A stretch of DNA of 49,296 nucleotides, taken from the NCBI GenBank assembly GCA_021839985.1, contig JAKBZO010000002.1:1-49296 (forward strand). The letters run 5' to 3'. Below the pieces are notes generated by a model. It saw only the letters and a program-made list of their open reading frames with translations, searched no databases and was not told the DNA's origin. Position 1 is the stretch's first letter. Every line of letters starts with the position of its first letter. The translations under genes and the position numbers were made by a program. This DNA is from a bacterium. Its GTDB lineage: Bacteria; Patescibacteriota; Minisyncoccia; Phycocordibacterales; SBAW01. Below are positions 3,378 through 48,575 of this stretch, piece after piece.

Positions 3378-3458
3378 GTCCTCCAAATCGTGTTACGGGT
3401 TGAGGAAAACTACTCCGTTGAGCACGGTCTCATAAGATCAGCCGCACTGCAAGCATGC

Positions 3459-4058
3459 TTACTTCAGCCACGGGATGTCGAATTGTTCGAATTCAGGAAG
3501 GAGTTTTTTGTCATAGAGAAGGCGCGAGATGACCTCGGCGTGGCAGAGCGCGCCGGTGAGCGCGTTGTGCGGTTCCGGTTCTGCTGGTATGCCACAGTAG
3601 TTGAGCACGGCGTCGAGGTTGAGCGCAGAGCGATGTTTTTCCGGATCGACCGGTGGCACGAGTCCGCGCTTCACGATATGCATCCAGCAGAGCGTGTGCG
3701 AGTCGATCGTGCGGTATGCGAACGGAAACTCCGTGTGCCCGGCACGTTGTGCGGCTGCTTTGATGAAGTCTCGGTCGAACGAAACATTCTGTCCGGCAAG
3801 TGTTCGGTCATTGGCCGGCATGGCCCAGTCGATGAAATGATGCACGAGATCGCTCTCGCTCTCTTTGGTGGGATCGATGATCTCTTCTCGCGTGAAGCCG
3901 TTGACCTCAAGCGCCTGGTCGTCGATATGCGCGCCGTCCCACACGCGGCACTCTTCATAAAAGCGGCGCTCGGGATGATCAAGGTCAAGCGCGCCGACGC
4001 TCACGATCGAGTGCAGGTTGTATTCGACTCCGGACGCTTCGACATCGATGATGATCAT
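3459..4058 (-). CDS. DnaQ-like 3'-5' exonuclease (DEDD family)
   Basis: Exo I IIIDVEASG and Exo II QNVSFDRDF. The Exo III region reads HNALTGAL, so the usual Asp position is Gly. Start is the ATG at 4058 giving MIIIDVE; the ORF-track extension to 4121 runs through the heptad array. Confidence 0.75.
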   Translation of the reverse strand: MIIIDVEASGVEYNLHSIVSVGALDLDHPERRFYEECRVWDGAHIDDQALEVNGFTREEIIDPTKESESDLVHHFIDWAMPANDRTLAGQNVSFDRDFIKAAAQRAGHTEFPFAYRTIDSHTLCWMHIVKRGLVPPVDPEKHRSALNLDAVLNYCGIPAEPEPHNALTGALCHAEVISRLLYDKKLLPEFEQFDIPWLK

Positions 4059-4059
4059 A

Positions 4060-4094
4060 CAGTTAGGTATTAGCTGGTAGGTTGTAGGTTTTAG
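4060..4094 (-). repeat. Heptad-phased CTA array H1 (5 units) immediately 5' of the exonuclease start
   Basis: Minus strand CTAAAAC CTACAAC CTACCAG CTAATAC CTAACTG, then T, then ATG. On the plus strand TAG falls at 4064, 4071, 4078, 4085 and 4092. Confidence 0.95.
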
Positions 4095-4117
4095 TAAAAC
4101 ACAATTCCAGAAGACCA

Positions 4118-4146
4118 CCAACTTGGAGGCCGAACCTCCAAGTTGG
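4118..4146 (-). terminator. Hairpin directly after the stop of the 4147-4569 gene
   Basis: CCAACTTGGAGG-CCGAA-CCTCCAAGTTGG, a 12-bp stem. The U-tract on the minus strand is weak. Confidence 0.4.
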
Positions 4147-4569
4147 CTATTTGCAATTTGTTGCGCGCGTGTAGCCGGCCGCTTCTGCCGTGGCGGCGGT
4201 TGCGAACCACACTTTGTTGGCGTCTGTTATCCGGCTCGCGCCGCTGCAGGTTGGCGTGTAGTACTTGGCGCCGTTCTTCGAGGCGACGAATCCGCCGGTG
4301 GGCGGTTGAGACGTGCTTGCGCTGGGCGCCGACGAGGTCGGTGCCTGCAGAAAGTCATTCGACGCTTCGGTCGGCCGGAGGATCTCCTGCATATTCCCTG
4401 CCGGATGAATGACCACCGGCTTTCTCCCCTCTTCGAGCGCCGAAAGCCGTCCCAAACCGAAAGCGCCGAGGGCGACCAATACCACGATGGCCGGCAAAGC
4501 GGCCCTGTCGAAAAGCTCAAGGAGTCTCTTGCGCGACAAGTACTTATCAGGTATGATGTTGGAGTTCAT
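4147..4569 (-). CDS. Membrane-anchored protein with a C-terminal Cys-containing (Ada-like/'sunset'-type) domain
   Basis: One N-terminal TM segment, a Ser/Pro/Thr-rich linker, and the C-terminus ..SKNGAKYYTPTCSGASRITDANKVWFATAATAEAAGYTRATNC. The domain name is from memory. Confidence 0.5.
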   Translation of the reverse strand: MNSNIIPDKYLSRKRLLELFDRAALPAIVVLVALGAFGLGRLSALEEGRKPVVIHPAGNMQEILRPTEASNDFLQAPTSSAPSASTSQPPTGGFVASKNGAKYYTPTCSGASRITDANKVWFATAATAEAAGYTRATNCK

Positions 4570-4595: not shown

Positions 4596-4623
4596 CTACA
4601 CCCTACGACCTATTCCCTATAAC
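4596..4623 (+). repeat. Heptad-phased CTA array H2 (4 units) in the rpmA leader
   Basis: Plus strand CTACACC CTACGAC CTATTCC CTATAAC, with CTA at 4596, 4603, 4610 and 4617. The ATG of rpmA is at 4634. Confidence 0.9.
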
Positions 4624-5437: not shown

Positions 5438-6751
5438 TTAGTTGTTCACTAAGTACTGCACGGCGGCGTCTTTCTGCGGATCGCGTCCGGCAGCGATATC
5501 GTCAGCGGTCGTCGTTGCATTGATGTCGGGCGTGAGGCCGCCATCGGAGATCGACGTGCCGTTAGGCGTCAGCCAGCGCGCCACTGTGATCTTCACCTGC
5601 GCGCCGTCGCCGAGGTCGAAAACCTCCTGCACCGAACCTTTGCCAAATGAGCGCGTGCCCACGAGTTTGGCGATGCCGTGCTGCTGTAGTGCACCCGAAA
5701 GGATCTCTGCCGCCGACGCGGTCCCCTGGTCGATCAGGATCGCCATCGATAGTTTCTTATTGGCAAAGACGTTGTAGCCGAAGCTGCGGTGCGTGTTGTT
5801 GCTCTGCGTGCCGCGGAAATCTTCGGTCACGACCGTGTCGCCTGCAGGCAAGAAGTAGCTCGCCATATCGACCGCCGCGTCGAGGTAGCCGCCTGGGTTG
5901 CCGCGCAGGTCGAGCATCAAGCGCGTGTCTCCGGACTCGAAGAATGCGCGAAGAGCCTCTCGGAATTGATCGGCCGAGGTTGCGGAGAAATTGTACAGGT
6001 CGATCTCGAAGATCTTGGTGTCGGCGTGATTGACGTAGTTGATCGTCGGGATCGCGATGGTGTCGCGCACGATCGCTATTGTGAACGGTTGGCTCGTGCC
6101 GGCGCGCGTGAGCGTGAGTTTAACGGTCGTGCCCTTCTCTCCGCGAATAAGCGCTACCGCTTGATCGGCGGTCATATCGGCAGTGCTCGTGCCATCGATC
6201 GCGAGGATCTTGTCGCCAGCGCGAACGCCGGCCGCTTCTGCAGGACTCCCCTTAAGCGGAGCGATCACTGTCACTGCATTGTCTTGCACACCGACATCCA
6301 TGCCGACGCCGCCGAACGAACCGCTGACGTTCTCATCGAACATCTTCGCGTCTTGCGGCGGGAAGAAGGTCGTGTACGGATCACCGTAGCTGTCGACAAG
6401 ACCTTGAAGCATGCCGTAGACCTTCTGCTGGTCGGTCGGGATCGTACCGCTCGCGTGCGTCTCGACGAAATTGCTGTTCAGAAGATTCCAGGTGCGCCAA
6501 AGCGTGGTGAGGTCCACATTGCTCGGCTCGCTGCCTCCGGAGAGATCGAGTGTGACCGAGGTCGTGCCCGGCGTACTTGATGCGGATGGATCGGCGCTTA
6601 TCACTTGCGTTTGTGCAAGCGTCGATACCTGATGAATGCCGACATACAGCCCGGCAATGAAGACCGCGACGATGAAGATAAAAGCGCCAGCCGCACGTTT
6701 GGTAGTGTTGGATAATGCGCTCGGAGTGAATTCTGGTTCCATGCTCTGCAT
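5438..6751 (-). CDS. Carboxy-terminal processing (S41) peptidase with N-terminal membrane anchor and PDZ domain
   Basis: PDZ-like GSPAEAAGVRAGDKILAIDG; S41 motifs RGNPGG and DQGTASAAEILSGALQ..KLVG..FGKG. Confidence 0.85.
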   Translation of the reverse strand: MQSMEPEFTPSALSNTTKRAAGAFIFIVAVFIAGLYVGIHQVSTLAQTQVISADPSASSTPGTTSVTLDLSGGSEPSNVDLTTLWRTWNLLNSNFVETHASGTIPTDQQKVYGMLQGLVDSYGDPYTTFFPPQDAKMFDENVSGSFGGVGMDVGVQDNAVTVIAPLKGSPAEAAGVRAGDKILAIDGTSTADMTADQAVALIRGEKGTTVKLTLTRAGTSQPFTIAIVRDTIAIPTINYVNHADTKIFEIDLYNFSATSADQFREALRAFFESGDTRLMLDLRGNPGGYLDAAVDMASYFLPAGDTVVTEDFRGTQSNNTHRSFGYNVFANKKLSMAILIDQGTASAAEILSGALQQHGIAKLVGTRSFGKGSVQEVFDLGDGAQVKITVARWLTPNGTSISDGGLTPDINATTTADDIAAGRDPQKDAAVQYLVNN

Positions 6752-10693: not shown

Positions 10694-11311
10694 ATGGACC
10701 CCATTGAACGACTCATCATAGCTTTTGAACGCTTTCCCGGTATCGGACCGCGGCAGGCGCGCCGGTTCGTGAGCTTTTTGCTGTCGCAGAATAATGCGGC
10801 GCGCAATGACATCGCCGATAGTATTCGCGCGCTAGGCTCCGCGACGGCGAACTGCTCTCGCTGCTATCGCTGGTTCCTTAAAGATCAAGGCCGTGGCGGT
10901 GTGTGCACAGTATGTGGCGACTTGAGACGTGATGCGAGTGTGCTCATGGTGGTCGAAAAGGAAGCCGACATCGATAATGTGGAGCGTGGCGGCTATCGCG
11001 GCTTATATTTCGTGCTTGGCGGCACTGCGCCGCTTGCGGAGGAACATCCTGAGAAATATATCCGCATGCGCGAGCTCTTTTCGCGCGTCGAGAGCGATAT
11101 CGCCGCAGGGACTCTCAAAGAGATCATCCTTGGGCTTTCCGCGACAACTGAAGGCGATCACACGCGACTCCTCCTCTCTGAAGAGCTGCGGCCGCGCATT
11201 GAGGCGCACTCTGTAGTGGTCTCAACACTCGGGCGTGGTCTCTCAACAGGAAGCGAGCTTGAGTACGCCGATCCGGAGACGATCGCGCAGGCACTACAAG
11301 GAAGGAAGTAG
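10694..11311 (+). CDS. recR: Recombination protein RecR
   Basis: FPGIGPRQA helix-hairpin-helix, C4 zinc finger CSRC..CTVC, and Toprim VVEKEADIDNVER. Confidence 0.92.
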   Translation: MDPIERLIIAFERFPGIGPRQARRFVSFLLSQNNAARNDIADSIRALGSATANCSRCYRWFLKDQGRGGVCTVCGDLRRDASVLMVVEKEADIDNVERGGYRGLYFVLGGTAPLAEEHPEKYIRMRELFSRVESDIAAGTLKEIILGLSATTEGDHTRLLLSEELRPRIEAHSVVVSTLGRGLSTGSELEYADPETIAQALQGRK

Positions 11312-11318
11312 ACGCAAG

Positions 11319-11339
11319 CTTTTAGGTTTTAGCTTGTAG
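11319..11339 (-). repeat. Heptad-phased CTA array H3 (3 units) with no downstream gene on the CTA strand
   Basis: Minus strand CTACAAG CTAAAAC CTAAAAG. Plus-strand TAG at 11323, 11330 and 11337 is in 7-nt register with the recR stop TAG at 11309. Confidence 0.85.
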
Positions 11340-11351
11340 GATAACGCAACC

Positions 11352-11386
11352 AAAAACCCGCGTCGGCAAAGCCGACGCGGGTTTTT
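11352..11386. terminator. Bidirectional rho-independent terminator between recR (+) and rplU (-)
   Basis: AAAAA-CCCGCGTCGGC-AAA-GCCGACGCGGG-TTTTT. Confidence 0.8.
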
Positions 11387-11408
11387 GGTTTCCTAAAAGC
11401 CCCGTCTC

Positions 11409-15848: not shown

Positions 15849-15920
15849 GGCCCTATCGTCTAACGGTTAGGACAGCGCCCTTTCACGGCGTAAATCGGGG
15901 TTCGATTCCCCGTAGGGTCA
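15849..15920 (+). tRNA. tRNA-Glu (anticodon UUC), CCA not encoded
   Basis: Hand-folded. Acceptor GGCCCTA/TAGGGTC, D arm GTCT-AACGGTTA-GGAC, anticodon arm GCGCC-CUUUCAC-GGCGT, T arm CGGGG-TTCGATT-CCCCG, discriminator A. 72 nt. Confidence 0.9.
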
Positions 15921-17631
15921 CAAGTTGGGATTTATTTGCACTGAATTCCTCAGAAAGCTTGAAAAGGCTTGTTAGTTTTGGTGTTCCATTAAGTATTTGG
16001 TCGTAGGTCGGAATCTCCTCAAAAAACAGGGTCAGGAGCAACCGGCGGCTAAACAAATTATCAGCCTCCGTAAGGATTTCTGAGGGGTGTTCCATTACGT
16101 GAGCGGCGTAATGTCGGAAGCTGCGAATACTCTTCTCCGTAATCTCGATGCGTCCACGCTCGCCCTCAGCTTTTGTTATATCCTTTTCGATTTGCTCAAT
16201 CTCAGCTTCCAGCATATCGCGCACGGTCTGAGTCTTCGCATGACCAAAGGCATCAAGTTTGTTTGCAAGCTTTGTTTTCAGGTCGGCGACATTGTGGCCG
16301 ATGGATGAAGCTGCGACGAGAATCTCTTTTTCACGGTTGCGATATTCATCAAGCAAATGGAGTTCGAGGAGAGCCAAGAAGCCCTCATCAAATTTCAAAC
16401 TATCCAAATAGGCGCGAACGTTTTTCTCAAATTCGTCCTGCGCGATGCGGAAGTATTCATGCGCTCTTTTGCCAGACTTTGAGCCTCCGCAATGGTAGGC
16501 AGGAAATTTCTTACCCGATTTACCTACAGAAGCACTGGCAAGTACTTCAGATTTACAATGGTGGCAAAGAATACACTTCCACGGATATTCAGGATTGTCT
16601 TTGATACGCTTTACCTTGCCCCATGGTGAGTAGTTATGCCGTACTTCAACAGCATCACCCGCCTTTGCTTTGGCAAATGAATCGGGGTCAATGTAGATTT
16701 TCCCGCGATTAGCTCGGTTGAAGACATCAACCGAAACTATGCCATCCCAATGAGCCTTCACAGGACGATGCCGCGTCCATTTCTCGTATATGACCGCTAC
16801 ATATTCGGTCTGTTGAATCATTCGTTGCAATTGCTTTATAGTCAGCGGGTTGCCACCTGATTTACCAATAAGCTTAGGACGTTCTTTATCACTCCTGTCC
16901 CATCGGTGATAAAGCGGCGTTTTGTATCCCATTGCATTCAGGAGCCCCACGATTTTTGCGTCATCCCCACCGTTTGCCCTCATTTCAAATGCCTTTTGCA
17001 AAAAATGCGCTCGGTCGCTCGGCTCTCTAATAATTTTCTTTTTCCCGTCAACGAGAACTGAGCTATTCTTCAGTCCATCGGGTGCTCTGCGTACCGCATA
17101 GCCTTCCTGTACCAATTTCATTTCTGCTCCTACAAGCCGCGTCAGAATGTCTCTTACTTCCTGTCTGCCCTGGTGAGCTGCCAGCATTTCCGCAGTCTCA
17201 CTAGGCGAAGACATGCTCCACCAGTATTCGTGATTACCTCCCAGGTGTTCAAGTGAATTTCTTTTCGGTTGAATGATGCCCGTCGTATCAGCAAGCACGA
17301 TTCCTTCTCTCTCCAACTTATCTTTGAGCGGCCAATACTCCGGCGCGCCCATACGGGTAAACCGGTCTATGCTTTTGAAAATATATTTACTTATTACAAC
17401 CCCTGCTTTCTTCCTACTCTTGGCGTACGCAATGATTTCCTCGATGTCATCTCTCTCGGTTGTAGTGGCCGAGTGTGGTTTACGAAAGACTTTATCAACT
17501 ATCCAACCTTGTCGCTCAGCAAGAAAACGTCCTGCCATCTCTTGGTTTTCGAGGCTGCCGCCCTTCAACTGCTGCGGGTCGCTGACCCGGCAATCTATCA
17601 CCGCGTAGACTTTAGGATTGCCCATACTCAT
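15883..17631 (-). CDS. Large serine recombinase (integrase)
   Basis: N-terminal resolvase catalytic domain (YAVIDCRVSDPQQ, SIDRFTR), a recombinase domain, a zinc-ribbon-like CILCHHC..YHCGG and a C-terminal coiled coil. The last 13 codons are antisense to tRNA-Glu. Confidence 0.9.
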   Translation of the reverse strand: MSMGNPKVYAVIDCRVSDPQQLKGGSLENQEMAGRFLAERQGWIVDKVFRKPHSATTTERDDIEEIIAYAKSRKKAGVVISKYIFKSIDRFTRMGAPEYWPLKDKLEREGIVLADTTGIIQPKRNSLEHLGGNHEYWWSMSSPSETAEMLAAHQGRQEVRDILTRLVGAEMKLVQEGYAVRRAPDGLKNSSVLVDGKKKIIREPSDRAHFLQKAFEMRANGGDDAKIVGLLNAMGYKTPLYHRWDRSDKERPKLIGKSGGNPLTIKQLQRMIQQTEYVAVIYEKWTRHRPVKAHWDGIVSVDVFNRANRGKIYIDPDSFAKAKAGDAVEVRHNYSPWGKVKRIKDNPEYPWKCILCHHCKSEVLASASVGKSGKKFPAYHCGGSKSGKRAHEYFRIAQDEFEKNVRAYLDSLKFDEGFLALLELHLLDEYRNREKEILVAASSIGHNVADLKTKLANKLDAFGHAKTQTVRDMLEAEIEQIEKDITKAEGERGRIEITEKSIRSFRHYAAHVMEHPSEILTEADNLFSRRLLLTLFFEEIPTYDQILNGTPKLTSLFKLSEEFSANKSQLVTLRGIEPRFTP

Positions 17632-17816
17632 ATTGTACCGCGAGGAGGGGCGTCCTGCCGGACGGCATCGGTCGCTGTTTTTGCTCGTTTATTCCAGTTA
17701 TCAAAAAGGACGCTAGCCAAGCGGCTCATGCGTTCGTTTACCATTTCTATTTCTTTGTCAGACATTTGTTCCCCACGAGAACCAAGTGCCTTCCTGCAAT
17801 CCTGGACAGATACCAT
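17628..17816 (-). CDS. Small hypothetical protein upstream of, and overlapping, the recombinase start
   Basis: 62 aa from the ATG at 17816 (MVSVQDCRKALGS..). Its stop overlaps the recombinase ATG by 4 nt. Function unknown; an RDF or regulator is possible. Confidence 0.4.
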   Translation of the reverse strand: MVSVQDCRKALGSRGEQMSDKEIEMVNERMSRLASVLFDNWNKRAKTATDAVRQDAPPRGTI

Positions 17817-18203
17817 AGCCTTTCGGCTAGGCAAGAAAACCCTCAACACAAAACAAACCCGTGGTTAGGGTTTGCTAGAAAAAGTGGTGGTATATGGGGT
17901 TAGTTGACTGAAGAATTTAAATGGGGTTTTTGGAGAAGAAATTGTATGGACAAAATAGAAAAGATTTTTTGAATCTTTTTTCCGGCTGCGAGTTTTCAAA
18001 GAGCCTAGCGCCCCTTAATTCAATCATGCGAGGCCTCAAATCACAAGTGTATTTTGACAAAAAACTGAGGAAAAATACGAATTGTATCTTTCCGATATTG
18101 TAGCTTGTTGCAGCCCTGATAATACACGAGAAAATGCGAATTTATGGCTCAGGACAAAGGCCAGAACCTTGGAACGACTCCGAACCTGCCACCCTACTTT
18201 TTC

Positions 18204-18375
18204 GGAAAGATTCCGGAAGATACATCTCTGTGAAATATGCGGAAGATTGAGGGAGATGGAATGTGTCTACCAAAGCCTTTTATGGCTTCAAATCTGGGTT
18301 TCCGGTCAAAAATTGCACATTTGTATCTTCCGCATATTTCCCAATCTTTCCCAGAGATGCTTTCTCCGGGGAAAG
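18204..18375. repeat. Iteron-like repeat cluster with a 16-bp perfect inverted repeat
   Basis: GAAATATGCGGAAGAT (18232-18247) is the reverse complement of 18325-18340. CATCTCTG 18223-18230 pairs with 18352-18359, and GGAAAGATT 18204-18212 with 18343-18351. There are five GGAAGAT/GGAAAGAT copies (3 direct, 2 inverted). Confidence 0.85.
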
Positions 18376-18379
18376 TATG

Positions 18380-18829
18380 CTAGAGATTCAGGAGTTGCTT
18401 TTTCTTCTGGTTGAATTCGTCCTCCGTGATGACACCTCGCTCCTTCAGATTCGCAAGTTTTTCAAGCTCGTCCATGCTGCTGTGTTTCTGCCCGTCCTGC
18501 CCGATACGCTCCTCGATGAGTCGCTTCGCTTCCTCAAACTTTTCGTTCTTGCCACCGTATACGTGGAAGTTTATTGAGTTCTCGTCCTTGGCCGACTGGA
18601 ATAGCCCGGCCTTGGCCTCAGAACCGCCCATAAGCGTGAGTTGGATGTACCCGGCTACCATACCCGCTCTTTTGAGTTGCACGGCCACTATACGCGAATA
18701 CGGAATGGTCTTGTCGCCCCGCAACATTCCACCACCAAGCAGAAAACCTTTCATGCCGCGTTTAATAATCACACCCGCATCCGTGAGGATGAGAGTGCCG
18801 TTGTACCCCTTATATTCTCTTTGTTCCAT
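18380..18829 (-). CDS. SHOCT-domain protein with an N-terminal PH-like beta-rich domain
   Basis: The C-terminus DELEKLANLKERGVITEDEFNQKKKQLL matches the SHOCT consensus. The N-terminal domain assignment is tentative. Confidence 0.75.
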   Translation of the reverse strand: MEQREYKGYNGTLILTDAGVIIKRGMKGFLLGGGMLRGDKTIPYSRIVAVQLKRAGMVAGYIQLTLMGGSEAKAGLFQSAKDENSINFHVYGGKNEKFEEAKRLIEERIGQDGQKHSSMDELEKLANLKERGVITEDEFNQKKKQLLNL

Positions 18830-19056
18830 AGGACTTATAGGCTAGCTCGTAAGTCCGGGGCAGGCTCTCACACAAAAAGCCCGCCACGGGTAGAGGCCGA
18901 AGCCCCTCGTATGAGTTTCCCCATACGGCCAGTTAGACACCCCATGACGGGTTCTTTGTGTCTAACTGGACTTTTTCACCATGCCCGGTCTTGAGACCGA
19001 GTTTAGGCTACTTCGCACCTGTTGTGCCCCTTAATGATAACAGGAAATGGCCGGGA

Positions 19057-19860
19057 ATGCCCTTTAGGCGACGGTTCAATTCTTGGAACAAAGAGCGTAT
19101 AGTTGCCCCTATGAACAACGGCTTTTGTATACCAAAAAATGCCTTCCAAGCACTTCTGATAGAGCGGCAGAAGGCCATGCTTAGGCGTGTCATGGCGACC
19201 TTCGCGGATAGCCTATCTCAGCAAGAAATGGTGGCGCAGATGGAGCGTGAAGAGGGCGCGTTTAGCGAAGCGATGAAGGCAGAGAACGCAAAATTTGCAG
19301 CAAAGACCACGAACGTGGAAATCGTCATCGCGTTCCAACTAGCAGACTTCTATTTCCCTGGCGTTGATGCCGAGCTGTGCTTTGAAATGCGGAAGAGCTT
19401 CTCTCCCGATTCTGCAACTTCCTACGACAACATCGTAGCCGGAATTGAAAATGACACCGCGATAGACTGCGCGATAAGAGCTGACGGTCGGCAGTTTCAT
19501 TTCCAAATAAAGCGTTGTCCGCAAGAATATCTGCCGCATACACGCGCCGCGCTGACCGAGTACATCAAGAAGACGCTCTCTCATTACGGCAATATGAAAG
19601 GGACAGGTCTTGTGCTTCTCCTCCAACCCAATACCGAGGAGCGCAATGACGACCTGAGTTTCAAGGAAGTACACGAGGACATGGTGGCGATAAAAGACCA
19701 GATAACTTTTAACGAGATTGTTTTCGTCTTTAACAACCAAATGCAGAGTATGCGTTGGCAGCAGGTGTTCCCGGCCTACGGTTACAGCGAGAAACCGCTC
19801 GTACTCCTCAGTGAGAAGTACCAAGCGCAGCAGGAAGAGTGGAAAAATAAAACCTTATGA
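19057..19860 (+). CDS. Hypothetical protein A (island cargo), start uncertain (19057 or 19111)
   Basis: AGGAAA lies 10 nt upstream of ATG 19057; the ORF-track GTG 18958 lies inside a hairpin. Contains ..AIDCAIRADGRQFHFQIKR.., a D..QxK pattern weakly compatible with a PD-(D/E)xK core. Confidence 0.55.
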   Translation: MPFRRRFNSWNKERIVAPMNNGFCIPKNAFQALLIERQKAMLRRVMATFADSLSQQEMVAQMEREEGAFSEAMKAENAKFAAKTTNVEIVIAFQLADFYFPGVDAELCFEMRKSFSPDSATSYDNIVAGIENDTAIDCAIRADGRQFHFQIKRCPQEYLPHTRAALTEYIKKTLSHYGNMKGTGLVLLLQPNTEERNDDLSFKEVHEDMVAIKDQITFNEIVFVFNNQMQSMRWQQVFPAYGYSEKPLVLLSEKYQAQQEEWKNKTL

Positions 19861-20837
19861 AATTATTCTCCGACGACTTTCCCGAAGTAAACAGCGACGA
19901 GCAAATTGCCGAGCTGCAAAAACAGTTTCCCGAATACGACGCGGGATATTTGGTGCAGGGCGCATACGGACTCCGAAGACACACGAAGGAGTGGATGGAG
20001 CGCATGTGGGCGCAATATGAACCATATGCCGACCCTCATTTTCTAGAGGAGTTTAAACGGCACTTCACTCAGCGTTCTTGGGAGCTGTATCTCGGCGCAA
20101 CGCTCCTCAATCGCGGCTTCAAGCTCGGAGCACATAAGAACGCGGGGGCAGATTTTGATGTACAAAACGACAAGGGTGAGCGTATAACGTGGATAGAGGC
20201 CATCGCGGTGCGCCCCGGAGAGGGCGCAGATAGGGTGCCTGACCTCACATATGAGGTTGTAACGAGCGTGCCGGTGGATGAGATGCTTCTCCGCGTCGCT
20301 GCGGCCTTGGACGCTAAACACAAGAAATATCTTTCCGACGTAAAGAATGGTTTTGTGGCGAGCAACGAGCCGTATGTTATCGCGCTCGACCGTTCCGAAT
20401 TGGGTCATGTGGAAATCCCGCCGTCGCTCATTCTGAAAGCTCTTTTTGGTATTGGCCACCTGACATTGAGTTTCCCGGTACCGGTGCCGGGCGAAGCACC
20501 AAGAACTGAGGAGCCGAAGAGGTTTTGGGGAGCATTGCCTGAAGTTTCAAAGAAAAGCGGCAGTCCCGTATCTATGCAGTTTTTTGAGAATCCTGCACAC
20601 GCCGGTATAAGCGCGGTGATTTATTCTGTGCCGCATGTAATCAGCAGTCCGCGCGTGCCTGAGGAAATGGGAGAACACTTTTATGTCGTCCATAATCCGC
20701 AGGCAACAGATCCGCTTCCTTCCGAGGCATTGCCATTTGGTGAGGAGTACCGAGTTGAGGGCGACATAGTAAATCTCACGAGAGAACGAAAAGAGTACCA
20801 ATCTCCTGACCCTTTTGAACACCTAAGCGATAACTGA
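19857..20837 (+). CDS. Hypothetical protein B (island cargo), translationally coupled to A
   Basis: ATGA overlap with A at 19857-19860. Contains ..RSWELYLGATLL..GADFDVQNDKGERITWIEAIAV.., a helix-Glu/Asp/Glu pattern reminiscent of restriction-endonuclease-like folds but with no Lys in the third motif. Confidence 0.65.
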   Translation: MKLFSDDFPEVNSDEQIAELQKQFPEYDAGYLVQGAYGLRRHTKEWMERMWAQYEPYADPHFLEEFKRHFTQRSWELYLGATLLNRGFKLGAHKNAGADFDVQNDKGERITWIEAIAVRPGEGADRVPDLTYEVVTSVPVDEMLLRVAAALDAKHKKYLSDVKNGFVASNEPYVIALDRSELGHVEIPPSLILKALFGIGHLTLSFPVPVPGEAPRTEEPKRFWGALPEVSKKSGSPVSMQFFENPAHAGISAVIYSVPHVISSPRVPEEMGEHFYVVHNPQATDPLPSEALPFGEEYRVEGDIVNLTRERKEYQSPDPFEHLSDN

Positions 20838-21203
20838 CTAGGTGATAATCACTCGCTCTCTATCTGAGGGTATTTCATCTACGTGCGACCGCTTAACTAC
20901 AGAACGGAGTAACTGCTCATCGCGGGCAAAAATGAATCTGTCGCTAGTTACAGCAAAGCGTAAATTTATTTGCCGGACTAGCTCACGGTCAATCCGGTGT
21001 CCAGTTGTTTTTGTGCCTGTGTTCCCAATGGAGAGGCTCATCGTTGCCGTCAATGGAATAACCTTCACCGCCCCCTGCGTCGCAATTCCTACGCCTTGAC
21101 CCCAATGTGTCTCACCATAGTTCTCAGGCGGAAAAATCGTGAATGGGTTGTCCGTAAGAATGAAAGATGCCGAATCGGGAGCGAAAAGGAATTGCCAGTC
21201 CAT
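20838..21203 (-). pseudogene. C-terminal fragment of a DUF4238-like protein
   Basis: ..FILTDNPF.. and ..FARDEQLL.. resemble the C-terminal half of DUF4238-type proteins (from memory). The N-terminal ~150 aa are absent, and the upstream in-frame sequence is His/Arg/Pro-rich nonsense. Confidence 0.4.
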
Positions 21204-21356
21204 ACCGAAATCGGCGGCAAGCTTCCATCGAAAGTAGGTGGGAGACTCTTTCTCTTTCGTTACGTGCTCCTTTGGGGTGTGGCGGGACTGGCTTTCTATT
21301 GGGTATATACCTATCGGATATTTTGGGATATTTTTCTTTGGGTGCCATATTCGCTT

Positions 21357-21578
21357 ATGGCGATGTGGCTCGCTATGAACTCTATCTTGCCGGTGGTGCG
21401 CTATTTTTCAGTTACCAGAAAACTGTTCGGCATAGATTCTGCAAAAAAAAGTTGGTGGCAACTGCTGACGCGGGGAGCAGCAATCGTCGGGCTCGTATTT
21501 GGGTCGCTGTTTGTTGGTATATATTTTTCCGTTGGCACAAACCTTACGCTTGATATCCTAAAGCATTTTGCCAACTAA
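21357..21578 (+). CDS. Possible small membrane protein (2-3 TM); start unresolved
   Basis: Hydrophobic segments MAMWLAMNSILPVV and AAIVGLVFGSLFVGIYF. The frame is open from 20997, but only the region after ~21230 looks protein-like. Confidence 0.3.
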   Translation: MAMWLAMNSILPVVRYFSVTRKLFGIDSAKKSWWQLLTRGAAIVGLVFGSLFVGIYFSVGTNLTLDILKHFAN

Positions 21579-21771
21579 TATTGCTTTGCGCTCTTGTTCT
21601 ATAACTCATTGGGTAAGTTCTTGCGGCTCTTCTTAGACGAAAAATCCAATTTTCTCTAGGCAAAAGCAGGTACTAGTTTCGCAACGCCCGTAGCCTCAAA
21701 AACTTCGTTCCACCGTAAAACCATGGTTTCCAAGGTGTTCCATTCTAGATACACTGAGTTCACAAATCGAC

Positions 21772-21800
21772 CGGTTCGAAAGCGTTTAGCTTTCGAACCG
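21772..21800 (+). terminator. Terminator-like hairpin just before module M2
   Basis: CGGTTCGAAAGC-GTTTA-GCTTTCGAACCG, a 12-bp perfect stem, followed by TTGTCGTTTGT. Confidence 0.45.
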
Positions 21801-21812
21801 TTGTCGTTTGTA

Positions 21813-21937
21813 GACCCTACGGGGAATCGAAAGCGAGCGCGGGCACCCGTTTTGCAGAACGGGTCGCGCGAGCGTGGCTAGGCGGAGCGAGGAGCGACGG
21901 CGACGAGCGAGCGCCTAGCCGATTCCCCGTAGGGTCA
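21813..21937 (+). repeat. tRNA-end-flanked module M2
   Basis: The 17-bp terminal inverted repeat GACCCTACGGGGAATCG (21813-21829) / CGATTCCCCGTAGGGTC (21920-21936) copies the tRNA-Glu T-loop/acceptor 3' end. The interior has GGAATCGAAAGC and GAGCGACGGCGA, identical to M1. Confidence 0.8.
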
Positions 21938-21978
21938 TGGTAACGAAAGAGAGCGCACTTCTGTGCGCCTTTTTCGTC

Positions 21979-22149
21979 TGTGACCCTACGAGCAAGGCGC
22001 CCGCGCGCCTTGCGTGGGAGTCGAATCGGCGGAGCATGTTCTGAGGTTTTACGAAGGACGGCGGGCCGCGTCCAGCAGTACTTATCTTTTTGCGAATACT
22101 TGGGACAAAAAGATCAGTAACTGTGGGATCATTCACCGTAGGGTCACAA
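21979..22149 (+). repeat. tRNA-end-flanked module M3
   Basis: Terminal inverted repeat TGTGACCCTACG (21979-21990) / CGTAGGGTCACA (22137-22148). It has the same architecture as M1: an inverted acceptor copy, a 9-bp hairpin with a CCGC loop, GGAGTCGAATC, CGGAGCATGTT, ..ATCAGTAAC.., and a direct tRNA 3' copy. Confidence 0.75.
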
Positions 22150-37891: not shown

Positions 37892-39016
37892 TTATTCGTG
37901 TGAGATGCCGATATCGAGCAGCGCTGTCGCGATCGTCTGCGCTGCGTCGCCGCGTGCGAATGCTTTTGCTGCGGCGCTCAGTTGCGCCGCAAGCGACGGG
38001 TTGTCGATGATGCGATCGATCTCGGCGATCAGGATGCCGGGCGTGAGGTTGTTCTGTTCAATGACCGCGGTGGCACCGGCGCGCGCGTATGCGAATGCAT
38101 TTTTCGTTTGATGATCGCCGGCGGCTCCCGGGAGCGGAATGAGAATGGACGGCAGGCCCCACGCTGCGATCTCAAAGAGCGCTGAGCCGGAGCGCGAGAT
38201 CACGAGCGACGCCGCGCCTGCGGACATGCGCATGGCGAGATCGTCGAGATAGTCGAATGCGTGATAGCGCTCCGGGTGCGGAGAATCATGGAGTACCAAC
38301 TTGGCGCGTCCTTCTACTTCGGTGATATTGGCGCGGCCAGTCTGATGGATGATCTGATATTTCTCGACGAGGCGCGGCAGCGCGGCAAGGATAGCGTCGT
38401 TGATCGTCACCGCTCCTTGCGAACCGCCGAGCACTAGCAAGACCGGCACGCCTTCCTGCAGTTTGAGATATTCGAACGCGCCTTCTTTCGTCGGGTGAAG
38501 AAGCGCCTTGCGCACCGGGTTGCCGGTCACTGCAACTTTTTCTTTCGGAAAATATTCTGCCGCTTCGGGGAACGAGACCGCGATCTTCTGCGCGAACTTC
38601 CCTGCCCACACATTAACGCGACCGGGAACCGAATCGCTTTCGTGGATGATGATCGGAATGCGGAACAGTCGCGCGGCAAGAAGCGTCGGGAAACTCACAT
38701 AGCCGCCCTTGCTGAAGACGACATCGGGATAGAGAAAGAAAACGCGCACGACCGACTTGATGACGCCCCATGACGCCTTGAACAGGTCGATCACGTTCAT
38801 TAACGAGAAGTAGCGCCGCAGTTTGCCGGCTGCGGTCGGAACGAAACGGATGTCGTTGGCGACGAGCATGTCGCGGTCGTACGGATCGGGCGCGGCATAA
38901 TACAAGATCGGTTCGATGAGCCGGCGTTCGCGTACAGCATCGTGTACCGCTTCCGCGACCGCGATGATCGGATAGAAATGGCCGCCTGTTCCCCCTCCGG
39001 TGAATAGTATCTTCAT
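37892..39016 (-). CDS. murG: Undecaprenyldiphospho-muramoylpentapeptide beta-N-acetylglucosaminyltransferase
   Basis: MKILFTGGGTGGHFYP.. from the ATG at 39016. The ORF-track extension to 39061 is translation through the heptad array. Confidence 0.9.
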   Translation of the reverse strand: MKILFTGGGTGGHFYPIIAVAEAVHDAVRERRLIEPILYYAAPDPYDRDMLVANDIRFVPTAAGKLRRYFSLMNVIDLFKASWGVIKSVVRVFFLYPDVVFSKGGYVSFPTLLAARLFRIPIIIHESDSVPGRVNVWAGKFAQKIAVSFPEAAEYFPKEKVAVTGNPVRKALLHPTKEGAFEYLKLQEGVPVLLVLGGSQGAVTINDAILAALPRLVEKYQIIHQTGRANITEVEGRAKLVLHDSPHPERYHAFDYLDDLAMRMSAGAASLVISRSGSALFEIAAWGLPSILIPLPGAAGDHQTKNAFAYARAGATAVIEQNNLTPGILIAEIDRIIDNPSLAAQLSAAAKAFARGDAAQTIATALLDIGISHE

Positions 39017-39046
39017 AGGTTTTAGCTGGTAGCTTGTAGGTTTTAG
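39016..39046 (-). repeat. Heptad-phased CTA array H4 (5 CTA) abutting the murG start
   Basis: Minus strand CTAAAAC CTACAAG CTACCAG CTAAAAC CTATG; the last CTA shares its A with the ATG. Plus-strand TAG at 39016, 39023, 39030, 39037 and 39044. Confidence 0.95.
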
Positions 39047-44999: not shown

Positions 45000-46342
45000 T
45001 TTACTTCTTCGCCTTCTGCGGTTAATCGAACATCGATACGATTGATATCGCGCGGGAACAAGGTCGCCTCTTTGACATTGGGCAGGCCGAGGAATTTCGC
45101 GGTGAGGCGCTCAAGACCCATACCCCATCCGCCGTGCGGCGGCATGCCGTATTTGAAGGCTTGTAGGTAGAAAGAGAAATTCTCAGGAACGAGCCCCTTC
45201 ATCTTCATTCCCTCGATGAGGTTGTCATAGTCATGGCGTCGCTGTCCGCCGGTCGTGATCTCAACGCCGCGGAACAGAAGATCGAAACTCTTGGTGAAGC
45301 CCTTATTGTTCTCGTCTTCGTAGGTGTAGAACGGGCGCTTCGAGACCGGATAGTGCGTGACGAAAACGAAATCAGAATTGTGGGCGCGCTTTGACCACTC
45401 GCATAGCCAGCGTTCATCCTCTGGTTCGAGATCCGGCTCGGCGCGCTTGTCTTTGCCGGTCTCTTTGAAGATAAGCTCCTGTGCTTCGCGCAGTTTCATC
45501 GACGGGATCGTCTCTGGCACGACCGGCACTTCTGCTTTCAAAAGCGCGAACTCGGCAGCGCATGTCTTTCCAAGATGCTCGCAGATCGCTTTCATGAGGC
45601 GTGTCTCAACCGCCATGATATCGGTGTGATCGCGGATAAAACCGAACTCGGCATCCATCGAAGTGTACTCGTTGAGGTGGCGGGTAGTGCTGTGTTTTTC
45701 TGCGCGGAACACGTTGCCGATCGCGAACACCCGCTCGAAGACGCCGACCATGATCTGTTTGTAGAGTTGAGGTGAGGTTGCAAGGTGGGCGGTCTTGCCG
45801 TAGAGGTACGCGACTTCAAAAACCTCACCGCTTCCTTCTGCGTCGTCGCCGATCAGTTTCGGTGCTTGGAATTCGGTAAAGCCGTCGCTCCCGAGAAAGG
45901 CGCGGTACGCTTTCGTTATCTCGGCTTGCACTTTGAATACCGCACGAGCTTTATCAGCGCGCAAGGTATAGGGCAGATAGTCGAGATATGTGTCGATGTT
46001 GAGTTCGGCGTCGAGGTCGAACGGCAGGTCGCGTGGGGCTGCGAGCACATCGATCGAATGGATCTCGAGCTCAATGTCGCCGTTCTGCATGTTCGGATTG
46101 ACGTTCTTCTCCGGGCGCTTGTTCACCGTGCCGATCACGCAGACGACCGCCTCGCGCGCGGTTTCCTTCGCTGTGCCGATCGCTTCCGACTGCGGAAGCG
46201 TCACGCCCTGCACCATGCCGCTGCGATCGCGGAAATCGAAGAATACCATCTTGCCCTGGTCGCGCCGCACCGACACCCATCCTTCAATGAGCGCTTTCTC
46301 CCCGACCTTCTGCCCGAGTCCTGCGATAAGTGTTCGTTCCAT
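44996..46342 (-). CDS. aspS: Aspartate--tRNA ligase, archaeal/eukaryotic-type (class IIb)
   Basis: ATSPQLYKQ, FRAEKHSTTRHLNEYTSMDAE and GGWGMGLERL; 448 aa. Confidence 0.88.
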   Translation of the reverse strand: MERTLIAGLGQKVGEKALIEGWVSVRRDQGKMVFFDFRDRSGMVQGVTLPQSEAIGTAKETAREAVVCVIGTVNKRPEKNVNPNMQNGDIELEIHSIDVLAAPRDLPFDLDAELNIDTYLDYLPYTLRADKARAVFKVQAEITKAYRAFLGSDGFTEFQAPKLIGDDAEGSGEVFEVAYLYGKTAHLATSPQLYKQIMVGVFERVFAIGNVFRAEKHSTTRHLNEYTSMDAEFGFIRDHTDIMAVETRLMKAICEHLGKTCAAEFALLKAEVPVVPETIPSMKLREAQELIFKETGKDKRAEPDLEPEDERWLCEWSKRAHNSDFVFVTHYPVSKRPFYTYEDENNKGFTKSFDLLFRGVEITTGGQRRHDYDNLIEGMKMKGLVPENFSFYLQAFKYGMPPHGGWGMGLERLTAKFLGLPNVKEATLFPRDINRIDVRLTAEGEEVK

Positions 46343-46343
46343 G

Positions 46344-46378
46344 TCTTTAGTAAGTAGAAAGTAGTTGGTAGTACGTAG
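46344..46378 (-). repeat. Heptad-phased CTA array H5 (5 units) immediately 5' of the aspS start
   Basis: Minus strand CTACGTA CTACCAA CTACTTT CTACTTA CTAAAGA, then C, then ATG. Plus-strand TAG at 46348, 46355, 46362, 46369 and 46376. Confidence 0.95.
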
Positions 46379-46411
46379 TGAAAATTCCTGGCGGTATTTC
46401 TCTATGATATA

Positions 46412-47362
46412 TCATAGAGAAATACCGATCTTCTGTCGCACCTCTTTCATCTTTGCCGATGCGATCTCACGCGCTTTCTCAGAACCATTTGCAAGCACTT
46501 CGCGCACGACATCATCGGTGATGAGCGCACGCTTCTCGCGCATGGGCGCTATGAACGCATCAATGTCTTCGATGAGCAGTTCTTTGAGGTTCTTGTACTT
46601 GCCGCGGTTCTCTTCGTAGATATTCACAAGCTCATCTTCGCTGCGGAAGAGTTTGTGGATCGCATACACATGCTCCGGTCGCTCGCCTGAGGAGTCGGTC
46701 ACGATGCTCATCACCGCCTTCGCGATCTCGTCTTTGGTACCGAAGAGCGGAATGGTGTTGCCGTAGCTCTTGCTCATCTTGCGACCGTCGGTGCCGGGGA
46801 CCACGGCAACTTCTTTGAGTATCTTCTCTTGCGGTTCTTTGAATGTTGCGCCGTAGGCGTTGTTGAATTTCGACGCTGCTTCGCGCGCGTACTCGACATG
46901 CTGCCGCTGATCCTCGCCGACTGGCACAATGTCGGTATCGTAGAGGATGATATCCGCCGCCATGAGCATCGGATAGTTGAAGAGCCCGGCATTCGCTTCC
47001 TCGCCCTTAGCGGTGCGGTCTTTGTAGGCGTGCGCCTGCATGAGGAACGGCACGGTCACGAGGCACTCAAGTATCCATGCGAGTTCTGCGTGCTCCGGCA
47101 CGTCGGACTGTTTGAACAGAAGCGCCTTTGAAGGATCGAAACCTGCGGCGAGATAGTCGCGAACGATAGCAAATGAATTGGCGCGCAGTTCGTCGCCGGA
47201 GCGCACGGTCGTGAGTGCATGGAGGTCGGCAAGAAAAAGGACGCTGTCATACTCGCTGTACATGTCCAAGAACGGCTTGAGTGCACCGAAATAATTGCCG
47301 ATATGGAGTGAGCCGCCGGTCGGTTTGAGCCCGGTCAAAAGCCGCTTTTTCTGAGCTGTCAT
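46412..47362 (-). CDS. trpS: Tryptophan--tRNA ligase
   Basis: GSLHIGNYFG (HIGH) and KMSKSYGN (KMSKS); 316 aa. Confidence 0.93.
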   Translation of the reverse strand: MTAQKKRLLTGLKPTGGSLHIGNYFGALKPFLDMYSEYDSVLFLADLHALTTVRSGDELRANSFAIVRDYLAAGFDPSKALLFKQSDVPEHAELAWILECLVTVPFLMQAHAYKDRTAKGEEANAGLFNYPMLMAADIILYDTDIVPVGEDQRQHVEYAREAASKFNNAYGATFKEPQEKILKEVAVVPGTDGRKMSKSYGNTIPLFGTKDEIAKAVMSIVTDSSGERPEHVYAIHKLFRSEDELVNIYEENRGKYKNLKELLIEDIDAFIAPMREKRALITDDVVREVLANGSEKAREIASAKMKEVRQKIGISL

Positions 47363-47412: not shown

Positions 47413-47440
47413 CTTTTAGCGGGTAGATTTTAGCTTTTAG
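47413..47440 (-). repeat. Heptad-phased CTA array H6 (4 units) between the dnaJ terminator and trpS
   Basis: Minus strand (GTAGAAC) CTAAAAG CTAAAAT CTACCCG CTAAAAG. Plus-strand TAG at 47417, 47424, 47431 and 47438. About 50 nt upstream of the trpS ATG. Confidence 0.9.
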
Positions 47441-47452
47441 GTTCTACAAACA

Positions 47453-47479
47453 CCCCGCGCTGGTTTTGCCAGCGCGGGG
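47453..47479 (-). terminator. Terminator hairpin after dnaJ
   Basis: CCCCGCGCTGG-TTTTG-CCAGCGCGGGG, an 11-bp stem. On the minus strand it is followed by TGTTTGT. Confidence 0.6.
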
Positions 47480-47510
47480 TTTGAGCCCCCTACATTCTAC
47501 GAACTTGATC

Positions 47511-48575
47511 CTACACCCCTTCGTCCTTCAATTTTTCGATAAGACCCATCGCCTCCTTCGAAAGTTTTTTCGGCAAAATGATCGAGACGCGCACATAGAG
47601 ATCGCCGCGTTTGCCGCCGCGTCCATGCGGCACGCCCTTCCCTTTTATGACGATCATCTGCCCGTGTTCAACGCCTGCGGGCACGTCGATCTTCTCATCG
47701 CCGTCGAGCGTGGGCACGGAGTATTTTTTGCCAAGCAGTGCGTCAGTGAGTTTGACCGAAAGATCGGTAATGAGATTAACGCCATCTTTGATGAATCGCT
47801 TGTCTGCGGCAACATGCACTTTGATGTAGAGATCTCCCGCCACACCGCCTGCGACCGCTTCTCCCGCTCCGGTCATGCGGATCATCTCGCCGTTCTCGAT
47901 ACCGGCGGGCACATTGATGCTGATCTCTTCCTGCTTGCGCCGCACGCCTTCACCGTGACAGGTCGTACACTTTTCCTCCGGTACCTTGCCAGTGCTGCGG
48001 CAGGTCGCGCATGGCTGCACTGTCGTCACCGCGCCAAAAAATGAATTGACGGTCTGATGCACTTTGCCGGCGCCGCCGCAGGTCGTACACGTGTTAAGTT
48101 TGCTCCCGGGCTTGGCACCGGAACCATGACACACTTCGCACTCGGAAACTTTTTGAAGCAGCACGACGCGCGCGGCACCAAAGATCGATTCTTTGAATGA
48201 GAGCTGAAGGTCGATCGAAATGTCGCGACCGCGTCGCGCCTGACGGCCACCGCCGCCGAAAATATCGCCGAAATCGAATCCCATACCACCGAACGCTTCC
48301 TGGAACTGCGAGAAGTCGAAACCTTGCGCACCATTGAAACCGCCGAAACCGCCCGCGCCGTTCCCGCCGAAGGTCTGTCCGTACGAGTCATACTCAGCGC
48401 GCTTCTTGTCGTCGGAGAGTACGGAGTATGCTTCGCTCGCCTCTTTGAATTTTTCCGCATCGCCGCCCTTCTTGTCGGGATGATATTTGTGCGCGAGCTT
48501 ATGGAATGCTTTTTTTATTTCTTCCTTGCTGGCGCTTTTCGGAACGCCGAGCACGCTGTAGTAATCTTTTGCCAT
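47511..48575 (-). CDS. dnaJ: Molecular chaperone DnaJ
   Basis: J domain [14 protein letters not shown], a G/F-rich region, and four CxxCxGxG repeats. The ATG at 48575 gives MAKDYY. Confidence 0.93.

Follow-up and report, generated by a model that had tools for sequence, protein, structure and literature searches.

What are the short arrays of CTA triplets that stand at exact 7-nucleotide (nt) spacing beside several core genes of a bacterium of the Candidate Phyla Radiation (CPR)/Patescibacteria, and what holds them there? They were found in a stretch of 49,296 nt (contig JAKBZO010000002.1, positions 1 to 49,296; hereafter the window), whose closest genomes belong to the Paceibacteria (Parcubacteria) group of the CPR/Patescibacteria. 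Six of its arrays, H1 to H6, carry CTA (TAG on the opposite strand) in this phase. Bacteria have been known to carry tandem heptanucleotide repeats since 1990, and to carry them in excess since 2007; the arrays of the window are a CTA-anchored, degenerate, lineage-specific variant of this class in a new phylum. The classification, together with the polarity of the arrays and their lability between genomes, is held with high confidence. The overall account, according to which they are slippage-born, orientation-filtered polar heptamer repeats and probable leaders free of a Shine-Dalgarno (SD) sequence, is given a probability of about 0.55; the translational-leader function of the arrays standing before start codons is a tentative proposal read from sequence.

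An earlier note made from the letters of the window (the sequence-only reading) had described six phased arrays, all of which are present. With a seventh, smaller one they are listed below; 5'-type arrays precede a start codon with CTA on the coding strand, and 3'-type arrays follow a stop codon with TAG on the coding strand.

H1, 4064-4094, minus strand: five heptads, CTAAAAC CTACAAC CTACCAG CTAATAC CTA(ACTG), then T, then the exonuclease ATG (4058); 5'-type.
H2, 4596-4619, plus strand: four heptads, CTACACC CTACGAC CTATTCC CTA(TAAC), with 10 nt to the L27 ATG (4634).
H3, 11323-11339, CTA on the minus strand: three units, CTACAAG CTAAAAC CTAAAAG.
H3 with its in-phase extension, 11309-11339, TAG on the plus strand: TAG(recR stop)ACGC AAGCTTT TAGGTTT TAGCTTG TAG; 3'-type, between the recR stop and a terminator.
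H4, 39016-39046, minus strand: five units, CTAAAAC CTACAAG CTACCAG CTAAAAC CTA-TG, in which the A of the final CTA is also the A of the murG ATG.
H5, 46348-46378, minus strand: five units, CTACGTA CTACCAA CTACTTT CTACTTA CTA(AAGA), then C, then the aspS ATG (46342).
H6, 47417-47440, minus strand: four units, CTAAAAG CTAAAAT CTACCCG CTA(AAAG), 50 nt upstream of the trpS ATG.
Seventh array (mini, 3'-type), 47490-47513, CTA on the plus strand: TAG(stop)GATC AAGTTCG TAGAATG TAG on the dnaJ coding strand (minus).

Such arrays are not random. In 300 dinucleotide-preserving shuffles of the window, arrays of at least three units appeared 0.047 times per window on average (at most once) and never reached four units, against six and five observed. 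When all 64 triplets were compared at periods 4 to 12, the CTA/TAG anchoring was specific to period 7. Coding sequence makes up 84% of the window, and all array bases fall outside genes. When adjacent units are compared, C, T and A match in all 20 pairs and positions 4 to 7 in 10, 6, 11 and 8 of 20, respectively, giving the consensus CTA-M-A-A-S (M, A or C; S, C or G) in which only CTA is invariant and the spacers of adjacent units are 30-55% identical. Unit comparison also bore out a vocabulary common to several loci (CTAAAAC, CTACAAG and others). Tandem Repeats Finder (TRF) picks up just H5 (76% matches) and H6 (65%), both weakly, which explains why such arrays stay unannotated, and an Rfam search, a sigma-70 promoter scan and a terminator scan returned nothing meaningful at the arrays in the window. 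Open reading frame (ORF) callers read through the arrays and produce false N-terminal extensions, as had been noticed for murG (VVGLTLKPTSYQLKP-MKILFTGGGT) and the exonuclease (..LLKPTTYQLIPNC-MIIID).

How the arrays evolve was followed in syntenic contigs of sister genomes, which cover the array-rich clade with about 80 kb of sequence. Identities to the window TrpS or exonuclease are 92% for L322, 95% for L323/L324, 76% for L325 and 96% for L329.

H1 site: kept in the sister contigs L329/L330/L332 with 2 spacer substitutions and 0 in CTA.
H2 site: array kept in L329, with three units instead of four and different spacers.
H4 site: six CTAs in L322 against five in the window; none in L325.
H5 site: kept in L323/L324 with 4 spacer substitutions and 0 in CTA; replaced in L322; absent from L325.
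H6 site: kept in L322 with 3 substitutions, all in spacers and 0 in CTA; absent from L323/L324.
dnaJ trailer array: two further units in the window, four in each of L322 and L323.

Over the alignable arrays, CTA positions changed in 0 of 42 cases, spacers in 9 of 56 and ungapped flanks in 16 of 90 (Fisher p = 0.009 and 0.0015). The spacers drift like neutral flanking DNA and the triplet is held, so that phase, weighed against sequence in orthologous intergenic regions as the sequence-only reading had suggested, is what persists. In the heptads flanking pattern-matched cores the mismatches look uniform per position, a comparison biased by the fact that any change of CTA ends the core, whereas many spacer changes do not.

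From one sister genome to the next, arrays appear, disappear and change in size. The H5 slot of L322 (7675-7711) carries a period-9 repeat, (TAAAGTTCA)x4, read as TAAAGTTCA TAAAGTTTT TAAAGTTCA TAAAGTC-ATG, whose first TAA is the trpS stop codon and whose last unit runs into the aspS start; thus, a different tandem repeat fills the slot that H5 fills in the window. A further example in L329 reads TAA(stop)GAGG, five TAG units, 7 nt, four CTA units, 8 nt and ATG, and this stretch folds into a predicted hairpin (z = -4.7). No orthologue of H3 was found among the RecR relatives: the only close contig, L327, ends 5 nt past the recR stop, and a 71% relative has a plain terminator. L327, a contig of 808 nt, ends about where the H3-equivalent array would be, and arrays of this kind may break short-read assemblies.

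Beyond the sister genomes, 1.18 Mb around the aspS orthologues of 80 other Paceibacteria contains five CTA arrays of at least four units, the same number as in the 49 kb of the window, which corresponds to an enrichment of about 24-fold. An ancient conserved leader was ruled out as an explanation, as the orthologous aspS site carries no array in these 80 loci except in L043, 14 nt before aspS. The L043 array (6607-6639; 62% AspS identity, GC 0.57) consists of five units, CCTAATG CCTAGTG CCTAAAG CCTAGCG CCTAA, and closer relatives have none; it seems that aspS gained an array independently here.

The position of the arrays relative to genes is the second regularity. Searches against Pfam and NCBIfam identified their neighbours as a DEDD exonuclease, L27, RecR, L21, MurG, FtsW, a non-discriminating AspS (Asp-tRNA(Asn) ligase), TrpS and DnaJ, in agreement with the downstream genes named before (exonuclease, L27, MurG, AspS and TrpS); these are unrelated housekeeping genes without a functional theme. 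At genes without an SD, H1, H2, H4 and H5 take up the final 0-35 nt ahead of the start, with CTA on the coding strand: H1 and H5 end 1 nt before ATG, the modal register, H4 is fused to ATG, and H2 ends 10 nt before it. For these four the CTA strand indeed lies in the position of a leader of the downstream gene, as the sequence-only reading had it. H3 is not a leader. It lies 11 nt past the recR stop, between the convergent genes recR and rplU, with TAG on the recR coding strand and the TAG stop codon in phase. H6 probably lies upstream of the trpS promoter and hence outside the trpS leader, since trpS has a -10-like TACACT box 7 nt from its ATG and H6 is located upstream of this box.

The general layout is a stop codon, a TAG-sense array, a hairpin, a CTA-sense array and ATG. 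Taken together, the window and the sister genomes hold five CTA-sense arrays no more than 30 nt upstream of a start, four TAG-sense arrays after a stop and no CTA-sense array after a stop. The following structures flank the arrays.

4117-4147, minus strand: hairpin CCAACTTGGAGGTTCGGCCTCCAAGTTGG with a 14-bp stem, at the stop of a 140-aa ORF and 22 nt upstream of H1.
11348-11399: bidirectional terminator hairpin separating recR from rplU, together with a lone repeat unit (fold -58.3 kcal/mol, z = -7.1).
46392-46427: palindrome CGGTATTTCTCTATGATATATCATAGAGAAATACCG, a perfect 16-bp stem straddling the trpS stop, 13 nt upstream of H5 and kept in L323/L324.
47453-47479, minus strand: G+C-rich dnaJ terminator hairpin, with a TAG-sense array lying 5' of it and H6 lying 3'.

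The palindrome at the trpS stop may be a bidirectional terminator or a protein-binding site. Near the recR/rplU terminator a lone unit CCTAAAAGC (11391-11399; CTAAAAG at 11393) is predicted to pair with GCTTTTAGG of H3, lengthening the terminator stem. Pairing with an inverted partner across a terminator or a loop is likewise predicted for H6 with the dnaJ array, for H4 in L322 and for the L329 pair. In the RNA folds, H1 (mostly), H2 and H5 are predicted to be unpaired with their start codons free, and H4 of the window, which sits in the 96-nt ftsW-murG spacer, folds no better than shuffles (z = -0.2). The 140-aa ORF between H1 and H2 (4147-4569, minus strand) belongs to no Pfam family and is kept in sister genomes; its C-terminus gives a sub-threshold NCBIfam match to the 'sunset domain' (22.8 bits, cutoff 27), and its orthologue in L331 gives a faint Pfam match to ArfC.

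The polarity is not confined to the window clade. A metagenome scan with CTAMMAS three times followed by CTA, the window's own dialect, gave at least 120 matches, where chance predicts almost none. These loci are selected by pattern and of unassigned taxonomy, have a GC of 0.31-0.71 and comprise perfect and degenerate arrays, some contigs carrying several; contigs with plant-type telomere repeats (CCCTAAA; L267, L246 and L303) were left out as eukaryotic. Gene boundaries were ORF-based: arrays were oriented to read CTA, and the longest six-frame ORF on each flank was taken as the gene. This test was preferred to a simple count of 3' versus 5' sides (54:12), which is inflated because the array's first TAG closes antisense shadow frames. 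All counts given here for these loci are among the matches listed. Of 109 arrays, 23, 36 and 41 have a gene boundary no farther than 5, 15 and 30 nt, respectively, from the CTA-3' end, and 0, 4 and 8 from the CTA-5' end. At the CTA-3' end the gene that abuts has its start, in CTA sense, or its end, in TAG sense, the stop often being the first TAG. Of the inverted neighbour pairs, 20 run TAG arm, loop, CTA arm and 1 runs the other way; in the window clade 4 of 4 are TAG-first. Matches to a generic (CTANNNN)x4CTA pattern on viral contigs were mostly perfect microsatellites among those listed and thus uninformative.

Stop codons as the cause of this polarity were rejected after tests of stop content, G/C skew and interruption identity. 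Non-CTA heptamers at the same loci, oriented by G/C skew, showed 23 versus 6 boundaries within 30 nt; those without stops in all frames showed the same polarity (16 versus 4), and sorting the non-CTA arrays by stop content revealed a weak trend only. In-phase interruptions of TAG are TAA in 1 of 8, and array edges decay to the non-stop triplets CAG, AAG and GAG, which dominate at the 5' edges. The orientation rule, with the C-rich strand leading into the gene boundary and inverted pairs starting with the G/T arm, is general and independent of stop codons.

What might such polar arrays do at start codons? An SD-like motif precedes only about 4 of the 37 window genes, so the lack of an SD at all array-bearing genes, correctly seen in the sequence-only reading, is not specific to them; GGAG, GAGG and AGGA are absent upstream of these genes, and the CTA strand of the arrays, which is the sense strand there, is G-poor and free of ATG, GTG and TTG. 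TAnnnT occurs 4-13 nt from ATG in about 11 of the 37 genes (dnaJ: TATATT-gtgcaa-ATG), and the aspS orthologues of relatives (L001-L023) typically have a hairpin followed by TGnTATTTTATA-N6-9-ATG. From these three features, leaderless mRNAs are probably common, possibly the norm, in this Paceibacteria lineage. The exonuclease gene, murG and aspS each have a same-strand gene 69-96 nt upstream and a hairpin, no -10 box near ATG and no SD. In relatives a -10 box occupies the place of the arrays, so a short leader is probable for these genes.

In the account that we favor, the arrays would be born, and would lengthen or shorten, when heptamers slip during replication in the scarce free positions that a compact genome offers, and would survive only where a G-poor, unstructured strand free of SD and start codons faces the start codon. 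The 5'-type arrays would replace the arrangement of relatives, a -10 box followed directly by ATG, and would let initiation proceed without an SD from an unstructured platform, as a leader for landing or standby. The fixation of CTA at 7-nt phase between neutral spacers suggests a reader with a heptamer footprint, possibly an OB-fold factor of the S1 or cold-shock protein (Csp) type or a HutP/TRAP-like multimer, which would read one CTA or XAG per heptad.

Several points weigh against this account, its leader function in particular. The leader role comes from the arrangement of the sequence, and H6, as said, probably lies upstream of the trpS promoter. About 90% of the SD-less window genes have no array, nor do sister orthologues of array-bearing genes, so any translational benefit must be small or conditional; individual arrays are dispensable, and these observations, like the inverted copies at 3' ends, speak against an obligatory role in translation. 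Moreover, an unstructured A/C-rich leader needs no exact 7-nt phase of CTA, and no S1, cold-shock domain (CSD), KH or HutP-like gene is found among the proteins of the 49-kb window, which leaves the reader hypothetical. The CTA constraint weakens to P(0 changes) of about 0.03 when changes in sister lineages only are counted, as the window arrays were ascertained for perfect CTA. The metagenome gene calls are ORF-based at loci chosen by the CTA-M-M-A-S pattern, and the polarity of the whole class is without an established cause.

The competitor that survives best, though we consider it a minority possibility, is that the arrays are neutral or selfish slippage products without function, with the invariance of CTA resulting from youth, concerted evolution or ascertainment. 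It accords with the presence/absence and unit-number polymorphism between genomes whose flanking proteins are 92-96% identical, with the lack of a functional theme among neighbours, and with the L322 period-9 repeat seeded on a stop codon at the H5 site. Among the metagenome matches listed, such units often occur as perfect microsatellites, for example (CTAACAG)n, (CTAAAAG)n and (CTACCAG)n, and the excess of heptamer simple sequence repeats (SSRs) is ascribed to polymerase slippage, at least in the passage of PMC4692102 that cites Mrazek 2007. However, uniform decay cannot yield 60 of 60 CTA matches next to about 44% at the spacers, nor 0 of 42 against 25 of 146 substitutions, and it leaves the same anchor in six arrays with different spacers unaccounted for. 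The rules of orientation and adjacency demand at least an orientation-dependent selective filter, which the favored account includes.

Two versions of a dedicated protein reader appear improbable to a similar degree. In the first, a HutP/TRAP-like multimer (TRAP sites resemble HutP sites) would read (U/X)AG at 7-nt phase by terminator stems, or pairing of this strand with the CUA arm abutting the start would be blocked, controlling termination or initiation genome-wide. The geometry has its best documented precedent in HutP. Its sites flank a G-C-rich terminator stem and hold, in single-stranded RNA, at least three XAG motifs (mostly UAG) at 7-nt spacing; only A and G are recognized, and the spacers are non-specific (PMC2425495). 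The TAG strand of every array in the window has at least three XAG at 7-nt spacing with free 4-nt spacers, and the TAG-sense arrays of dnaJ and recR lie directly 5' of G-C-rich terminator stems, with in-phase AAG or CAG variants inside them as at the 5' edges among the matches listed (CAG, AAG, GAG); the fixed triplet with neutral spacers and the L329 pair, whose hairpin ends 8 nt before ATG, would also fit. Against this, the sense RNA carries UAG in just 2 of 7 window arrays, in the other 5 the antisense RNA alone does, and the 3' side of the dnaJ terminator has CUA. HutP sites belong to one operon leader and have a second XAG site after a 12-17-nt linker; the window arrays are dispersed beside unrelated housekeeping genes and lack such a second site, and their polarity is common to heptamers without XAG, so the likeness is at the level of mechanism only.

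In the second version, equally doubtful, the heptad arrays would form a genome-wide punctuation system of these SD-poor, largely leaderless Paceibacteria, read by a triplet-reading multimeric or OB-fold protein with a 7-nt footprint. Like HutP, it would ignore the four spacer bases, on RNA or on a displaced DNA strand at gene boundaries, and would set transcript ends and ribosome starts in an orientation-specific manner. If true, this reading would also explain the short tandemly repeated repetitive (STRR), GGGAATC and TAACTGA repeats of other phyla.

A reading of the heptads as duplex DNA, by analogy an operator or polar roadblock like those of the omega-repressor (pSM19035) or the ToxR/H-NS TTTTGAT heptads at ctxAB, is thought quite unlikely. 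It would be the most economical explanation for an element occurring in both orientations to transcription, and three heptads, the minimum array size, make two helical turns with the triplet fixed and the spacers free. Yet three specified bp per site is very little for a DNA-binding protein, and no candidate protein is known. The omega-repressor heptads are contiguous 7-bp (A/T)ATCAC(A/T) units at plasmid promoters, bound by a ribbon-helix-helix (RHH) protein. The window heptads are contiguous as well, but they differ in sequence and context: they abut start and stop codons, not promoters, and no promoter-like (sigma-70-like) site was found at any array.

Less probable again is that the arrays act as structural arms, forming or extending intergenic hairpins or cruciforms as terminators or RNA-stability elements. 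The predicted pairing of H3, of H6 with the dnaJ array, of H4 in L322 and of the L329 pair, together with 21 inverted pairs among the matches listed, speaks for it; H1, H2 and H5 are partnerless, the H4 fold of the window is at shuffle level, free drift of spacers would erode pairing, and the U-tract typical of intrinsic terminators is missing from the A-rich 3' arms. The weakest is the all-frame stop insulator, which the sequence-only reading had named for the antisense strand. In the form weighed here, the outward TAG strand (7 mod 3 = 1) would halt ribosomes before they melt the neighbouring terminator, whether they read through in sense at a 3' end or translate the antisense strand at a 5' end: the TAG strand is always outward (pairs TAG-first 20:1, as above), the recR and dnaJ TAG stops and the L329 TAA stop are in phase with their arrays, and H1 and H5 are where long shadow ORFs, antisense to the exonuclease gene and aspS, terminate (3252-4073, 45785-46357 and 45990-46364). 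Against it stand the equal polarity of heptamers without all-frame stops, GGGAATC being stop-free on both strands, the lack of a TAA preference at interruptions and the decay of edges to NAG, the dnaJ array, which covers two frames and leaves one open, and period 4, which would do the job more cheaply. Initiation by a Firmicute-type DnaG primase at 5'-CTA and a resemblance to plant-type telomeres were considered as readings, too. So were Rho utilization (rut) sites; to our knowledge, cyanobacteria lack Rho, yet Nostoc has the same polarity.

Elsewhere in the window, an apparent integrated mobile element at tRNA-Glu(ttc) spans 15849-22000 and contains no CTA arrays. A large serine recombinase gene (15883-17631, minus strand) overlaps the tRNA gene (15849-15921) with its 3' end, and past it lie hypothetical genes with low G+C at third codon positions (GC3), a SHOCT-domain protein (18380-18829) and a LOOT RNA (RF03000, 85.7 bits, 18892-19009, minus strand). 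A Fic/DOC-family gene at the contig edge (107-1264, plus strand) has a GC3 of 0.39, compared with about 0.7 in core genes, and may be horizontally acquired.

Among known systems, the cyanobacterial STRR heptanucleotides described by Mazel and co-workers in 1990 are reportedly tandem, dispersed in non-coding DNA and of lineage-specific abundance. Their units (CCCCAGT, TTGGTCA, CAACAGT) are near-identical within an array. We know of no report of STRR in CPR. The window arrays agree with heptamer SSRs and STRR in being head-to-tail at 7 nt, non-coding, polar with respect to strand, conserved by locus with variable copy number and abundant in one lineage, and depart from STRR in their dissimilar adjacent units. 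Some metagenome contigs carry many heptamer arrays at low GC, as in heterocystous cyanobacteria; in L221, L237, L220, L233 and L299 many stand side by side (GACATTT, GGTCAAT, AACTTAA, AATCACC, CCCAAGG and others), and these multi-array contigs may be cyanobacterial or from other repeat-rich genomes.

The sequence-only reading recognized no described class, which was wrong, as TAACTGA (PMC4679880) and GGGAATC / GGGGA(C/T)T (PMC4692102) repeats are published, and two of its proposed roles, an SD-independent S1-type leader and a platform for a repeat-reading protein, had already been put forward for TAACTGA repeats (PMC4679880). Our literature search found no report of heptamer repeats in CPR/Patescibacteria, nor one on leaderless or SD starts in this group. 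MacGregor (2015; PMC4679880) described 169 TAACTGA sets of 2-6 copies in marine Beggiatoaceae, with occurrences in some Cyanobacteria and Bacteroidetes. Most of them point to a start codon, with 1 nt between repeat and start in the largest class; they overlap the position of the ribosome-binding site, and an SD is present in only about 10% of the regions containing them; they precede unrelated, essential genes, including ribosomal-protein genes, and S1, Csp and CsrA were proposed as readers (PMC4679880). The window arrays share the 7-nt period, the copy number, the SD-less starts in an SD-poor genome and the unrelated essential genes, and in both some sets overlap an upstream ORF at its end and some are interrupted by related heptamers. 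The TAACTGA unit, however, is near-exact, without G/C skew and with TAA and TGA on the sense strand, whereas only CTA is fixed in the window; the last H1 unit, CTAACTG, is the only one resembling it. The host phylum differs as well, and the TAG-sense 3'-end class is prominent in the window arrays.

The G-rich heptamers of Rehm et al. (2015; PMC4692102), GGGAATC in Xanthomonas and GGGGA(C/T)T in Nostoc/Anabaena, are strongly intergenic. Their G-rich strand is non-coding 0-50 bp upstream of ORFs and coding 0-50 bp downstream, stop overlap included; they form inverted pairs, are transcribed, keep their locus across species with variation in length and sequence, and have neither a functional theme nor an identified function (PMC4692102). 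Polarity, stop overlap, inverted pairs, lability and period are thus the same as in the window. They differ in forming G-quadruplexes and in favoring four copies; G-tracts are absent from the CTA/TAG units, most of whose sequence is degenerate. The over-representation of heptamer SSRs in many bacteria and the slippage hypothesis go back to Mrazek 2007, in the form in which PMC4692102 cites it. Phase-variable tandem heptamers in promoters and 5'-UTRs, whose copy number reportedly shifts by slippage and tunes expression, are found at hmw of Haemophilus influenzae (PMC12721329) and, as TTTTGAT heptads, at ctxAB of Vibrio cholerae (bioRxiv 10.1101/2021.05.14.444153); these are perfect repeats at contingency or virulence loci. 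The window units, unlike such phase-variation SSRs, are non-identical and therefore poor slippage substrates, and they neighbour housekeeping genes.

Compared with these systems, the arrays extend the heptamer class to the CPR, that is, to deeply branching, uncultivated organisms with compact SD-poor genomes, where in practice they mislead gene calls at N-termini. Their clean signature, one constrained triplet in 7-nt phase with neutral-like spacers, argues for a reader with a heptamer footprint and against sequence-specific base pairing or G-quadruplexes. They are not a new kind of element; the constraint on the triplet alone and the general orientation rule offer a handle on a decades-old question.

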